A DNA stretch of 64,000 bases from Planctomycetota bacterium (GTDB lineage Bacteria; Planctomycetota; UBA8108; SXIK01), in contig CBDCXR010000004.1 of assembly GCA_965223845.1 (NCBI GenBank), positions 800,001 through 864,000 of the forward strand. The letters run 5' to 3'. Each line of letters begins with the position of its first letter. The stretch's first letter is position 1. A model generated the notes under the pieces. That model made no database searches, was not told the DNA's origin, and saw only the letters and a list, made by a program, of their open reading frames with translations. Below, in pieces: positions 59,777 through 64,000 of the stretch. Made by a program: the position numbers and the translations under genes.

Positions 59777-61222
59777 TCAATCGTTCGGTGACAGCACTGG
59801 TAGGGACTTTCTCCACGACAAAACTCGCTCCCGCAGCCGATCGGTCAGCGCCGGATGGTCTCCGGCTACATTCACTCGTTCCGCCGTGGACGCCGCGAAA
59901 TCGTAGAGCTCGACGCGTGAGCCGTCCGCGTTGACGAGAAGCTTCCAGCGGCCGTCGCGGATCGCGAGATTGGGACTCTGGTCGGCGTCTAGACCGGGTC
60001 TCAGGTACGTCGAGTCGCGTCCGTATTCCCAGAGAATCGGACGCCGTCGCGGTGCGGAGCGACCGAGAAACGCTGCGCTTCGGTCTTCCCCGTCGAACGC
60101 GACTCCGTCGGGCGGCGGGACCCCTGCGAGCCGGCAGAATGTGGGGAAGAGATCGATGGCCCCGATGATCGAGCTCTCGTCGACGCGTCCGGCGGGGATC
60201 CGTGCCGGCCAGCGGACGATCAGCGGCATCCGAATTCCGCCTTCGTAGAGACTCCACTTGCGCCCGCGAAAGCCGGCCGTGCTCCCGGGTGGATCGAGTC
60301 CCTCGCGGTAGTACTTCTTCCACGCGGTCGGTCCGTTGTCGCTCGTGAGAACGACCATCGTATCCGCGCCGATCCCGAGCTCGTCGATGCGCCTCACGAG
60401 CCGTCCGATCTCGCGGTCCATGTCAGCGAGGACTGCGTAGAGCTTTCGCTCGTAATGATTCGCGGAGTACCGTTCGAAGCGCGCCAGCGACTCGTCGGTC
60501 GGCCGATGGGCATCGTGAACGTCGTTCAGCCAGAGATGGAGATAAACGGGCTTAGCTCGGTTTTGTTCGATGAACTGAATCGCACGATCGACGTAGATTC
60601 CCGTCAAGCGATGCTTCGGCTCGTAGCGCACGTCTCCGCGTCCGATCTTTCGGTGCTCGGCGGCGAGCTTTTCCGAGAAGATGACGCGATCGCCGAGACC
60701 TTCGAAGCACACGAGCGATTCATCGAAGCCGTACGCTTGCGGAAGAGGGGCTTCGACGACGTCGCGGCCTCCGCCCATGTGCCACTTCCCGAAGTGTGCC
60801 GTCGCGTAGCCGGCCGCCTGGAACGATCGCGCGATCGCCGGAGCGGCCGGGTCGAGAAAATCGCGCATTCCACGCGCGCGATTCCGCTTCTTCGTCGCGA
60901 GGTAGGAGTGGATCAGGTGGCGCGCGGGGAATTGTCCGGTCGTGATCCCGACGCGAGACGGCGAGCAGATCGGGGACGCGACGTAGAACTGTGTGAAGCG
61001 GGTCCCTTCCGCAGCGAGTCGATCGATCGCTGGCGTTCGCACGACCCGGTTTCCCGTGCAGCTCAGATCGCCGTACCCCATGTCGTCGATGAGGATGACG
61101 ACGATATTCGGCTTTTCGCGCGCGGCGACAAGCCTCGGCGAAAGGGTCGAGACGGCGACGTACAAGAGGAGCGCGAGAGCGAAGCAACGGACGCGGCCGA
61201 CCACGCGGAAGGACGGAGTCAT
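59777..61222 (-). CDS. Sulfatase (formylglycine-dependent)
   Basis: PNIVVILIDDMGYGD, CSPSRVGITTG, GKWHMG, TSDNGP, KWSLYEGGIRMP. Confidence 0.92.
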   Translation of the reverse strand: MTPSFRVVGRVRCFALALLLYVAVSTLSPRLVAAREKPNIVVILIDDMGYGDLSCTGNRVVRTPAIDRLAAEGTRFTQFYVASPICSPSRVGITTGQFPARHLIHSYLATKKRNRARGMRDFLDPAAPAIARSFQAAGYATAHFGKWHMGGGRDVVEAPLPQAYGFDESLVCFEGLGDRVIFSEKLAAEHRKIGRGDVRYEPKHRLTGIYVDRAIQFIEQNRAKPVYLHLWLNDVHDAHRPTDESLARFERYSANHYERKLYAVLADMDREIGRLVRRIDELGIGADTMVVLTSDNGPTAWKKYYREGLDPPGSTAGFRGRKWSLYEGGIRMPLIVRWPARIPAGRVDESSIIGAIDLFPTFCRLAGVPPPDGVAFDGEDRSAAFLGRSAPRRRPILWEYGRDSTYLRPGLDADQSPNLAIRDGRWKLLVNADGSRVELYDFAASTAERVNVAGDHPALTDRLRERVLSWRKSLPVLSPND

Positions 61223-61252
61223 CGAGCTTTCCTCGGGAGAACTGAAGGTCGA

Positions 61253-61909
61253 CTATTCGGTGCCAAACATCCGGTCGCCGGCGTCGCCGAGACCGGGGAG
61301 GATGTAGCCGGCGGAGCTGAGCTTTCGGTCGAGCGCCGCGCAGAACACGCGGACTCCTGGATGGTCATTCGCCATGCGCCGAACACCTTCGGGGGCGGCG
61401 ATCACGGTCATGAAGCGGATTTCGCGAGCACCGCGTTCGACGAGCTCGCGGACCGCGGCGCTCGCGGATCCACCTGTAGCGAGCATGGGATCGACTACGA
61501 TGAAGACGCGTGACGACGGTTCCGGCGGCAGGTTGAGATAGTAGAGATTTGGGGCGAGCGTCGCCTCGTCGCGTTTGATACCGATCGACCCAACCGCCAT
61601 GTTCGGGATCAGACGGAGCATTCCTTCGACGAGGCCGAGTCCTGCCCGCAGGATCGGTACGACCGCGACGTTCTCCTCCCGCACGTGATCACCCGACGTC
61701 TCTTCGAGGGGCGTTTCGATCGCGCGGTCTTCCACGGGAAGATCGCGCGTCACCTCGTAGGCCATCAAGGTCGCGATGTCTCCCAGCAGAGACCGAAACT
61801 GCGGCGTCGGCGTCGAAGCGGCGCGAAGGAGAGAGACCTTGTGCCGGAGAAGCGGGTGATCGAGGAGAACGAGATTCGGCAACTCAGCCGGTGTCGTGTG
61901 AGTCATCAC
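61253..61909 (-). CDS. upp: Uracil phosphoribosyltransferase
   Basis: HPLLRHK, VVPILRAGLG, DPMLATGGS, YILPGLGDAGDRMFGT. Confidence 0.97.
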   Translation of the reverse strand: MMTHTTPAELPNLVLLDHPLLRHKVSLLRAASTPTPQFRSLLGDIATLMAYEVTRDLPVEDRAIETPLEETSGDHVREENVAVVPILRAGLGLVEGMLRLIPNMAVGSIGIKRDEATLAPNLYYLNLPPEPSSRVFIVVDPMLATGGSASAAVRELVERGAREIRFMTVIAAPEGVRRMANDHPGVRVFCAALDRKLSSAGYILPGLGDAGDRMFGTE

Positions 61910-61942: not shown

Positions 61943-63265
61943 TCATCGGAGTGGGAAATCGAACTTCACGCGTTTCGCGTCACGGACGACGACGACCTGG
62001 AGCCGATCTCCGCGTTTCCGAGTCTGCATCGCGTGGGCGAAGATTGCCGACTCCGTGACGAGATCGGAGCGTCCGTCGACTTCGACGAGAATGTCGCCCT
62101 TGCGGAGCCCGGCGTCCTTTGCGGTGCGGTGCTCGCCGTATTGTCCGACGTGCTCGACGCGGAGCGCGAGCTGCGACGGCTCGACCTTGGCCCGCGCGCG
62201 CTCTTCGCTCGACGCCGGCTTGAGAAGCATGCCGCCGAGGGCCATCCGCCTCAGATCCCAGCTCGTCGTTCGCCACGAGAGATCCCCCGAACGGCGCCAG
62301 CCGGGCGGAAGGTCGAGAGAGAGCTCGACGGCCCGCTCACCTCGGGTCACGACAGCGTCCAGACTAGCCGGCGACCCTGCGCAGTGGAGAACCCACTGGA
62401 CATCCGCTATCGAGATCAACGGCTGGCCGTCGAGGCGGCGGAGACGATCGCCGGGGCGAAAGCCCGCTCTCGCCGCCGGCGAGTCGGCGGTGACCGCGCT
62501 CACGCGCGCTTTCTCCTTGGGATCGAACGCGAGACCGACCACGTTCGGATGCGGCCACGGGAAGAGGATCTCATCCGGAATCTCCTGGGCGGATTCGCGG
62601 CGAAGTCGTCGCTCGGCGTTTCCGATCATGTGGCAGTGGATGCACTGGCGCGCGACGCCCTTCCCAAAGGTGAGCGTGGACGAGAACTTCTTGAGCGATG
62701 GATACGATTCCGGAGTGCGGTGGGGCGATGAGCGAGGGCGAGATTTCCCCGCGAGGTGCTCGCGATCGCGCGGGTAGCTCGCGTGGAGCTCGAGAGCTCC
62801 GGCGAGGGCCTGAGCGAAGCCGGCCAGCGAAATGTCCCGCGTCGCCTCTTTCTGACTCGAACGCGTTCCGTAACGACCGTAGATCGTACCGTCGGAGTTC
62901 AAGAAGAACGCGGCGAACGTGAGGTCGTAGTCGAACTCGAACCGCTCGAGATCGAGTCCGTTCCCCTGGATCACGCGGACGCGTACGAACTGGCGGAGCA
63001 ACTCGTCGATCGTCTTATCGTGACGAGCAACCTGCTCGTCGAAGCCTTGGCAGGCGTGTCACGGGATTCACCGAAAGACGAGGAGGAGCGGTTTTCCACT
63101 CGCCTTCGCTTCGCGAAAACCGGCGTCGACGTCGTTGTAGATCCAGCGACCGTCCGACTCGATTGCGGTCTTGTCGCGCTGGACGAGCGTGTCGCGATCT
63201 TGAGCGATCGCCGGCGCCGCGAACGCCGCGGCCGCCAAGACGATCCTCGTGAACTTCGATCTCAT
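61943..63265 (-). CDS. Thioredoxin-like/PDZ-domain selenoprotein with two in-frame UGA (Sec) codons, 440 aa
   Basis: AAGGAG RBS and ATG 63265; signal peptide; WIYND..AGF.EAK.SGKPLLLVFR-TGA(63070-68)-IP-TGA(63061-59)-HACQGFDEQV continues in frame into ORF 61943..63001 (FEFDYDLTFAAFFLNSDGTIYGRYG, CIHCH, two PDZ domains); SECIS-like hairpin downstream. Confidence 0.85.
63022..63040 (-). promoter_or_regulatory. Putative bacterial SECIS element
   Basis: Minus-strand GACGAGCA-GGT-TGCTCGTC: perfect 8-bp stem with a G-rich apical loop, starting 18 nt after the second UGA. Confidence 0.75.
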
Positions 63266-63410
63266 GGGGAGTCTCCTTCTGGGATCAGGTTTCTCGGCCG
63301 ATACCCTTCCGTCGCATTCGGATTCGGGCATCGGGCGGGAATTCCCAGTGCCGATTGTCGCCGAAGCCCCGACGATCGCCAAGCGTCGACGAGACGCTGC
63401 ATGGGCCAGC

Positions 63411-64000
63411 TCACCTCGGGAAGGAGGCGAGCACGTCGCTGAACACTCCGCTCAGTTCGCGGGCATCGTCGAGCGAAAACACCATCGGTGGCTTGATCTT
63501 GATCACGTTGTGAAGTGGTCCGTCGACGCTGAGGAGGATGCCGCGCTCACGCATCGCCTCGACGATGGCGGCCGCCTCGCGATCGGCGGGTTCGAGAGTC
63601 GCACGATCGCGAACCAGCTCGATGCCGATGAAGAGTCCTCGTCCTCGGACGTCGCCGACGATCTCGTAGCGAGTGCCGAGCTCACGGAGGTCGTGGAGGA
63701 GAGCGGCGCCGACGCGATCCGCGTGCGCGCGCAGAGATTCTCCCTCGAGAACGTCGAGTACCGCGTTACCGGCCGCGCAGGATACGGGATTGCCACCGAA
63801 GGTGTTGAAGTACTCCATGCCGTTGTCGAACGCCGCGGAAATCTCCGAAGTCGTGACGACCGCCGCCAGCGGATGTCCGTTCCCGATCGGTTTCCCGAGG
63901 ACAACGAGATCAGGGACGACGCCCTGGAGCTCGAACGCCCACCAGTGCGCACCGCAGCGGCCGAATCCGACCTGGACCTCGTCCGCGATCGCGACTCCCC
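63411..64000 (-). CDS. Class III aminotransferase, C-terminal part (runs off window edge)
   Basis: Frame open to the window end: [26 protein letters not shown] (PLP lysine), [34 protein letters not shown]. Confidence 0.9.

Follow-up and report, generated by a model that had tools for sequence, protein, structure and literature searches.

Two in-frame UGA codons nine nucleotides apart in a planctomycetal Trx7/PDZ gene probably encode selenocysteine and are followed by two conserved hairpins

A 64,000-nt stretch of DNA from a Planctomycetota bacterium (GenBank assembly GCA_965223845.1, contig CBDCXR010000004.1, positions 800,001 to 864,000 of the forward strand; referred to below as the window) was found to contain a minus-strand gene in which two TGA codons, nine nucleotides apart, occupy the redox-active positions of a thioredoxin-fold domain. 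The gene is intact and belongs to the family of Trx7/PDZ domain-containing (seleno)proteins; its two TGA codons correspond to Cys or TGA codons in all relatives examined, the genome encodes the selenocysteine (Sec) machinery, and two short hairpins downstream of the second UGA, termed A and B, are conserved and covary. Judged from sequence comparison, the locus is a single gene whose product carries Sec at both UGAs (UGA1 and UGA2), a reading to which we assign a probability of roughly 0.85. Hairpin B resembles a bacterial Sec insertion sequence (SECIS) placed suitably for both codons, and hairpin A is associated with UGA1 and is a tentative candidate for a second recoding element.

Read with TGA as Sec, the gene runs from 63265 to 61943 on the minus strand (63265..61946 translated) and comprises 440 codons followed by a terminal TGA at 61945..61943. 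TGA1 and TGA2 are the only in-frame stops within the 440 residues, and there are no frameshifts. The minus-strand sequence around the motif, read directly, is ...GTC TTT CGG TGA ATC CCG TGA CAC GCC TGC CAA..., exactly as given in a preliminary description of this DNA, which had proposed a single product of 440 aa carrying U66, U69 and C72; the translation agrees. Under translation table 11, the TGAs split this one frame into the open reading frames (ORFs) 63068..63382 and 61943..63001, both on the minus strand, also as described there. The same description had regarded TGA as a normal stop elsewhere, and this too is borne out: TGA ends the gene itself, the upstream aminotransferase ORF (63413..63411) and 61 of 149 homologous genes, so TGA has not been reassigned. 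In the public protein collection the locus is represented only by the product of the 352-aa ORF (61943-63001), which begins after TGA2; the selenoprotein has thus been truncated by automatic gene calling. A homology search of that collection brought up Cys forms together with this truncated product. U is not written there, and a two-Sec annotation of public records is not readable from such sequences.

The read-through protein matched the NCBIfam profile NF041199 (Trx7/PDZ domain-containing (seleno)protein) with 410.7 bits against a cut-off of 300, residues 41-438 aligning with profile positions 2-389 of 390; a DNA-level search gave 394.3 bits. The family name given in the preliminary description, Trx7/PDZ (seleno)protein, proved correct. 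As in NF041199, a Thioredoxin_7 domain with the C/U-x-x-C/U motif stands at the N-terminus and PDZ domains come after it (Table 1). An AlphaFold2 model built from 47 aligned sequences reached a predicted local distance difference test score (pLDDT) of 90.2 and a predicted template modelling score (pTM) of 0.87, and the N-terminal part modelled separately gave a pLDDT of 82.1. Decay of the gene had been named as a point to check; the profile match over its full length and the confident model give no sign of it.

The distribution of the two TGA codons was determined by a profile search of 401 genomes of the phylum, in which the family was present in 136 genomes at E 1e-40 or better (118 over the cut-off). 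Among the 180 matches, 150 were listed, 73 with two TGAs, 44 with one and 33 with none; 149 of these 150 were examined, the Cys-form locus in genome G240 and the 30 unlisted matches being left out. With U standing for TGA and C for a Cys codon at the first two motif positions, the 149 loci among the matches listed comprise 73 UxxU, 44 CxxU and 32 CxxC forms and no UxxC form. The first position is thus TGA in 73 loci and a Cys codon in 76, the second is TGA in 117 and a Cys codon in 32, and in all 149 loci each position holds one or the other. Every one of the 149 frames also stays open for at least 349 codons past the motif, and together these features place the pattern beyond chance. The 73 UxxU loci come from 62 genomes, and all three forms are present among named relatives, which are Planctomycetota and Verrucomicrobiota metagenome-assembled genomes (MAGs). 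The rarity that the preliminary description had ascribed to UxxU sites does not extend to the Trx7/PDZ family, where UxxU is the commonest form in the sample. At the third motif position, 136 of 149 loci have Cys. All 32 Cys forms retain it, as do 104 of the 117 TGA forms; the other 13 have A, S, G, N or F instead.

Of 93 genomes holding a TGA form, 90 had a detected SelA, compared to 9 of 25 genomes with Cys forms only and a base rate of 290 of 401. On unrooted trees calculated without the motif and hairpin columns, at least 24 (FastTree) or at least 27 (IQ-TREE quick) changes of state between UxxU and the other forms were required. A Sec codon at the first position occurs only together with one at the second. 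This absence of UxxC suggests either an order CxxC to CxxU to UxxU or a constraint against UxxC, and because the trees are unrooted, the direction of the series is not shown by them. In several genomes two family genes lie adjacent or a few kb apart on one contig (G305:C9:126526-129073, G229:C242:15269-17875 and G104:C255:25973-31806); such pairs combine UxxU with UxxU in some genomes and UxxU with CxxU in others.

The source genome (7.93 Mb in 4 contigs, 91.7% complete) contains the Sec machinery for which the preliminary description had suggested looking. SelA (453 bits), SelD (308 bits) and SelB (320 bits, or 352.7 with neighbouring pieces) all exceed their curated cut-offs, as does a tRNA-Sec with anticodon tca (68 bits). 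Three family members are encoded. In addition to the window copy, there are two paralogs at C4:324650-325825 and C4:5875545-5876708, both on the minus strand: an all-Cys form (422.7 bits) and a second UxxU form (398.3 bits), so that two of the three members carry TGA at both positions. The Cys paralog has no stop and reads FR-C-VP-C-DA-C across the motif. The second UxxU paralog has diverged from the window copy; its hairpin B is strong and its hairpin A weak. NF041115, a UxxU metal-binding family sought as a second UxxU case, was not found in the genome.

The tRNA complement bears on the possibility that only one UGA, or neither, specifies Sec and that the other is read as Cys, through either a SECIS-dependent tRNA resembling tRNA-ReC (SelC*) or near-cognate decoding, so that the product would be CxxU or UxxC. 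There is precedent for raising it: according to PMC13582414, tRNA-ReC-like genes occur in ~56% of genomes with UXXU-type hydrogenases, and Cys reading is considered there. In the present genome, the ARAGORN calls include a single tRNA-SeC(tca) and, at 77 nt, a single ordinary tRNA-Cys(gca); another long tRNA resembling tRNA-Sec or tRNA-ReC was not found, within an assembly whose 91.7% completeness means that a tRNA gene may be missing. Of six sub-threshold matches to RF01852, the four that were checked are tRNA-Ser and tRNA-Leu. The repeated gain and loss of UGA1 (at least 24-27 changes) would moreover be hard to explain if it merely re-encoded Cys at a cost. We consider Cys reading of either codon improbable. 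Two ARAGORN calls of 'tRNA-Pyl' (anticodon cta; C4:1643846-1643919 on the minus and C4:6791124-6791203 on the plus strand) are probably false, because they have no Rfam match at E ≤0.1 and the genome has no PylS over the cut-off.

The RNA downstream of the motif was then folded, with positions counted from the U of UGA1, so that UGA2 is nt 10-12. Only the TGA forms carry a hairpin at about nt 31-49 (hairpin B). Folding energies for B average -11.6 kcal/mol in UxxU, -10.3 kcal/mol in CxxU and -4.8 kcal/mol in CxxC sequences; against synonymous-codon shuffles the corresponding mean z values are -2.72, -2.28 and -0.28. At most 5% of shuffles were as stable as the natural sequence in 86% of UxxU and 64% of CxxU sequences. 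For the window copy, B folds at -12.6 kcal/mol compared to -4.16 kcal/mol for synonymous shuffles, none of 200 of which was as stable. In the alignment of 71 UxxU sequences, which is free of gaps, the B stem has 86.6% of its cells paired, and double-sided changes occur in six of eight pairs. Covariation of both hairpins taken jointly was 0.238, compared to 0.135 in shuffles (the natural value was reached in 0 of 500) and at most 0.135 when the pairing partners were slid. RNAalifold on the same number of UxxU sequences (71) recovered three consensus pairs only, which are the core of B.

The geometry of hairpin B was compared with the bacterial SECIS (bSECIS) consensus as set out in the Fig. 2 legend of PMC13188914: a 3-9 nt loop with G in its first two positions, on a 4-16 bp stem, at a UGA-to-loop distance of 16-37 nt and with a minimum free energy of -7.5 kcal/mol or lower. 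A G at loop position 1 or 2 is present in 72 of 72 UxxU and 41 of 41 CxxU hairpins scored. Across the family the B loop starts 25-26 nt past UGA2 and 34-35 nt past UGA1 (26 and 35 nt in the window), and hairpin B falls within the bSECIS consensus for both UGAs. A covariance model built on both hairpins found only the two UxxU paralogs in the genome, at 68.2 and 64.4 bits, the latter being the window copy. The 4227 families of Rfam gave no match at E ≤10 in window positions 62850-63200. Folding of the region as a whole is not unusual for its composition (z -0.67), and the signal thus sits in the two local hairpins and not in global stability. Taken as comparative evidence, these data show B to be a SECIS-type hairpin under selection.

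Hairpin A lies between UGA2 and B, in the family window nt 13-30, and its loop includes the G and C of the Cys72 codon. Across the family it is found mostly alongside UGA1. The mean energy of this segment is -5.6 kcal/mol in UxxU, -1.9 kcal/mol in CxxU and -1.1 to -1.4 kcal/mol in CxxC sequences, with z values against synonymous shuffles of -1.99, +0.10 and -0.43, respectively. At most 5% of shuffles were as stable in 33% of UxxU and in 0% of CxxU sequences. In the window copy, A folds at -6.1 kcal/mol compared to -1.63 kcal/mol for synonymous shuffles, 1 of 200 of which was as stable. When seven 18-nt windows around the motif were compared, a large excess of stability in UxxU over CxxU appeared only at nt 13-30, and the same pattern of A was seen in the named Planctomycetota and Verrucomicrobiota MAGs. 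The association holds in phylogenetically separate UxxU/CxxU pairs: on the FastTree tree, the UxxU member had the more stable A in 16.8 of 21 pairs (Wilcoxon median p 0.0026, with a median difference of -3.5 kcal/mol), and on the IQ-TREE quick tree this was so for 20.7 of 24 pairs (Wilcoxon median p 0.0005, -3.25 kcal/mol). Hairpin B differed little in the paired comparison (-0.95 kcal/mol, p 0.095).

Several observations weigh against a function of hairpin A in decoding. An independent-pairs test that treated A as a binary trait, over 12 pairs on supported branches, was not significant (median p 0.11-0.375), with ~5-7 pairs pointing the same way and ~1.3-2.0 the opposite way. RNAalifold recovered no A pairs from the 71 UxxU sequences, and in a fixed register only 63.1% of A cells pair. 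The register of A shifts by one between clades; given this cause of the RNAalifold result, we relied on per-sequence folding, synonymous shuffles and paired comparisons. Exceptions occur on both sides, 8 of 73 UxxU sequences having no A at -3 kcal/mol or better and 11 of 44 CxxU sequences having one, and the genome's other UxxU paralog has a weak A (-3.9 kcal/mol, a stability reached by 18% of synonymous shuffles). Nor does A itself look like a SECIS: its loops are mostly GCA or GCAA in place of G-G/U, its mean of -5.6 kcal/mol is less stable than the required -7.5 kcal/mol, and its loop starts only 15-16 nt past UGA1. On balance, we put the chance that hairpin A functions in decoding UGA1 at close to even. 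That a two-part recoding signal, consisting of the SECIS-type B and a UGA1-specific A, has evolved repeatedly in this family with its Sec codons 9 nt apart is a tentative proposal, for which the odds are a little short of even.

The properties of A also lend themselves to another reading, in which UGA1 is mainly a selenium-dependent gate: when selenium is scarce, translation would stop at codon 66, and A would tune termination against read-through. A is specific to UGA1 and lacks the look of a SECIS, and since B already stands at a suitable distance from UGA1 under the consensus, insertion has no obvious need of A. On the other hand, UGA2 by itself would already constitute a selenium-dependent gate in the CxxU forms, and in each of the 73 loci that have UGA1, this codon coincides exactly with the position of the first redox Cys, which argues for chemistry and not for a gate that could be placed anywhere upstream. 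We regard this role as the main one for UGA1 as very unlikely.

The remaining explanations concern the integrity of the locus. A pseudogene, or two genes consisting of a short N-terminal ORF and the 352-aa ORF, is what table 11 and the single public 352-aa product would suggest at face value; both stops are TGA and coincide with the two redox Cys positions, a pattern shared by 73 loci of 62 genomes; the gene has no other stops or frameshifts, the 352-aa ORF would be without the signal peptide and half of the thioredoxin fold, and the downstream hairpins are under synonymous-site constraint, leaving this option hardly credible. Nothing was found in favour of an error of sequencing or assembly, or of TGA being reassigned throughout the genome, and both are just as implausible in view of the same pattern in a diverged paralog and 72 other loci, the genuine TGA stops described above and the contigs of four public runs (2 samples, 1 study), which show 0 differences over the gene.

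Three points count against the reading of one gene with Sec at both UGAs. The four runs may be the assembly's own source, in which case they add no independent support. Three of the 93 genomes with a TGA form showed no SelA (G336, 67% complete; G246, 84%; G148, 92%, in 340 contigs); all are fragmented drafts, and two are clearly incomplete. Finally, no experimental selenium report for any family member was found in the paper passages covered. The preliminary description had listed four findings that would speak against its proposal, namely a genome lacking Sec machinery, homologs with residues other than Cys at these positions, Cys codons in the reads and other signs of decay; none of the four was seen, and the reading of one gene with Sec at both UGAs is supported.

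Table 1 Features of the Trx7/PDZ gene in the window (positions are those of the window).
Feature	Position	Strand	Basis or remark
Whole gene, exported Trx7/PDZ selenoprotein with U66, U69 and C72	61943..63265	-	Translation, NF041199, Pfam
Shine-Dalgarno-like AAGGAG, 7 nt 5' of the ATG at 63265	63273..63278	-	Read from sequence
Probable Sec-type signal peptide, residues 1-21, AIA end then QD	63203..63265	-	Inspection of translation
Thioredoxin-like domain, Pfam Thioredoxin_7 (PF13899), residues 41-123; fold reaches ~165	62897..63145	-	E 2.5e-13
UGA1, codon 66, proposed Sec, first redox-motif position	63068..63070	-	Aligns with Cys of Cys paralog
UGA2, codon 69, proposed Sec, second redox-motif position	63059..63061	-	Translation, family alignment
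Cys72 codon UGC, third position of U-x-x-U-x-x-C	63050..63052	-	Sequence; family alignment
Hairpin A, 4-bp stem GCCU/AGGC, loop GCCA, nt 16-27	63044..63055	-	Folding; just past UGA2
Hairpin B, proposed SECIS, 8-bp stem, loop GGU, nt 31-49	63022..63040	-	Folding
C-x-H-C-H (C208, H210, C211, H212), invariant family signature	62630..62644	-	Consensus columns
First PDZ domain, residues ~250-314	62324..62518	-	PDZ_2 250-314, PDZ_6 254-302; like PDZ1 of DegP/DegQ
Second PDZ domain, residues ~374-438	61952..62146	-	PDZ_6/PDZ_2, two stretches each; strands and helices in model

The domain content of the protein (Table 1) points to an exported oxidoreductase. The N-terminus has the look of a signal peptide on inspection of the translation, with a basic end, a hydrophobic core and an A-x-A site, and the family consensus likewise reads ...AQD after a variable N-terminal end in the signal-peptide region. 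The nearest folds to the N-terminal part are Thioredox_DsbH (7tkv), 3f9u (the C-terminal domain of an exported cytochrome c biogenesis-related protein), 3fk8 (a disulphide isomerase) and ERp18/AGR2. The domain is Thioredoxin_7, and neither AhpC-TSA nor Redoxin was matched in Pfam at E ≤0.1. For the C-terminal half, sequence comparison (E 7.9e-14) and fold comparison (Foldseek E 1.7e-10) both point to a likeness to the PDZ tandem of DegQ/DegP; in the second PDZ domain residues 378-436 match HtrA/DegS models and residues 374-441 the DegS PDZ. No protease domain was found in Pfam, and TIGR02037 scored 44.2 bits against a cut-off of 416.2, over residues 248-434 of the PDZ region only. The protein is thus built like DegP/DegQ with a thioredoxin-fold domain in the protease's place. 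JGI names several Cys-form relatives 'serine protease Do' despite the absence of a protease domain. Between the thioredoxin fold and the PDZ pair lies a C-x-x-C-H sequence found in 149 of 149 family loci, in 148 of them as C-x-H-C-H. This is the haem c attachment pattern in an exported protein, and Pfam gave no cytochrome family at E ≤0.1; the site could be a haem c attachment or a metal site near the Sec motif.

The gene lies in a same-strand run with unrelated neighbours (window 59777-61909 and 63411-63998, minus strand), a class-III aminotransferase (Aminotran_3) upstream and a uracil phosphoribosyltransferase (UPRTase) and a sulfatase (Sulfatase) downstream. No adjacent gene for a redox partner was found among the window neighbours, and the neighbourhood gives no functional lead; the ORF lists around the two paralogs are too noisy in GC-rich DNA for a neighbourhood reading. 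A promoter and terminator scan gave nothing beyond shuffles.

With Sec at both UGAs, we propose that the product would act as an exported, periplasmic oxidoreductase in which a signal peptide is followed by a thioredoxin fold carrying U66-x-x-U69-x-x-C72, a C-x-H-C-H linker and a PDZ pair. Both UGAs would be decoded as Sec by SelA, SelB, SelD and tRNA-Sec under the direction of the coding-region hairpin B, and hairpin A may assist at UGA1. Hairpin A starts 9 nt after UGA1, which with UGA1 in the A site is about where mRNA enters the ribosome; A would therefore have to be unwound in the course of the three translocations that bring UGA2 into place. The most likely contribution of A would accordingly be to slow the ribosome over the three codons between the UGAs, which would let a second SelB-Sec-tRNA complex load on B. 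Alternatively, A could serve SelB as an additional, atypical site, or it could fold away as a spacer and so shorten the distance between UGA1 and B. In the protein, a thioredoxin fold with U-x-x-U in place of CxxC would be expected to close a diselenide, for which SelL is the precedent, and the two selenols probably cycle between diselenide and selenol states, with C72 as a residue that could resolve the diselenide as a selenenylsulfide. The likeness to DegP/DegQ suggests that the PDZ pair captures C-termini or unfolded exported proteins, and the substrates would then be exported proteins or peptides held by the PDZ domains.

The family has been described before, from its one-Sec side. According to passages of PMC2398784, it was first reported from the metagenome of the GOS (Global Ocean Sampling) as the selenoprotein 'putative secreted serine protease MucD', with a CxxU motif, two Sec sequences and 12 Cys homologs. 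The portions of two reviews that were covered also list it as CxxU (PMC9312934, 2022; PMC13188914, 2026, with 1 Sec). The window protein is a member of this family, with Thioredoxin_7, PDZ domains and a Sec-codon redox motif, and CxxU is frequent in our survey as well (44 of 149 loci); it differs from the form given in those sources in having TGA at both positions, the commonest state here (73 of 149). No text on the two-Sec form or on a UGA1-specific hairpin was found in the paper passages covered, the deep-Sep paper included; two Sec residues may already be shown for the family in supplements, NCBI's own description or nucleotide records. For double Sec as such, there are precedents. According to PMC13188914, the vast majority of bacterial selenoproteins have a single Sec and a small subset two or three, and the other bacterial UxxU families named in the two reviews are a Prx-like thiol:disulfide oxidoreductase, NF041115 and FmdB (PMC9312934, PMC13188914). 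What is new is the frequency of UxxU in the family, the CxxC/CxxU/UxxU series without UxxC and the UGA1-associated hairpin; a UxxU gene with two hairpins belongs to a known selenoprotein family and is not a new kind of system.

Three known systems are instructive for comparison. SelL, reportedly described by Shchedrina and colleagues in 2007, is said to be a eukaryotic Prx-like selenoprotein whose UxxU motif forms a diselenide bond. It is decoded through a eukaryotic SECIS in the 3' untranslated region. The window protein shares with it UxxU at the CxxC position of a thioredoxin-fold domain, and by analogy the same diselenide chemistry is expected. It belongs to a different family, as seen from the absence of AhpC-TSA and Redoxin matches, and unlike SelL it is bacterial, exported and PDZ-bearing, with recoding signals inside the coding region. 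DegP and DegQ share the PDZ1-PDZ2 tandem by sequence and fold and are likewise exported; the window protein differs in having a thioredoxin fold and no protease domain. A parallel in decoding is that of the UXXU-type group 4 [NiFeSe] hydrogenases, for which PMC13582414 (2026) proposes a single SECIS for both UGAs and leaves the decoding of both open. There too, two UGAs lie 9 nt apart, CxxU and UxxU relatives exist and a SECIS-like hairpin follows downstream. In that text the SECIS architecture is the same in CXXU and UXXU hydrogenases, whereas the UxxU forms of the Trx7/PDZ family add a hairpin between UGA2 and the SECIS; and UXXC forms occur in the hydrogenase set (PMC13582414), compared to 0 of 149 loci here.

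The two-Sec form is the commonest in a family present in about one third of the sampled genomes of the phylum (136 of 401), and it is truncated by gene callers; the family therefore represents a sizeable, systematically mis-annotated group of periplasmic redox proteins. Its CxxC/CxxU/UxxU series and the many switches between CxxU and UxxU amount to natural replicates for two questions. One is the job of a diselenide active site in an oxidising compartment, and the other is how SelB and a SECIS decode two UGAs three codons apart, for which hairpin A is a candidate element. If the proposed role of A is true, closely spaced double Sec insertion in bacteria would need a cis element of its own, of which A would be the first example, acting either as a timed pause that allows a second SelB-Sec-tRNA to be used on a single SECIS or as a minimal second SelB site.

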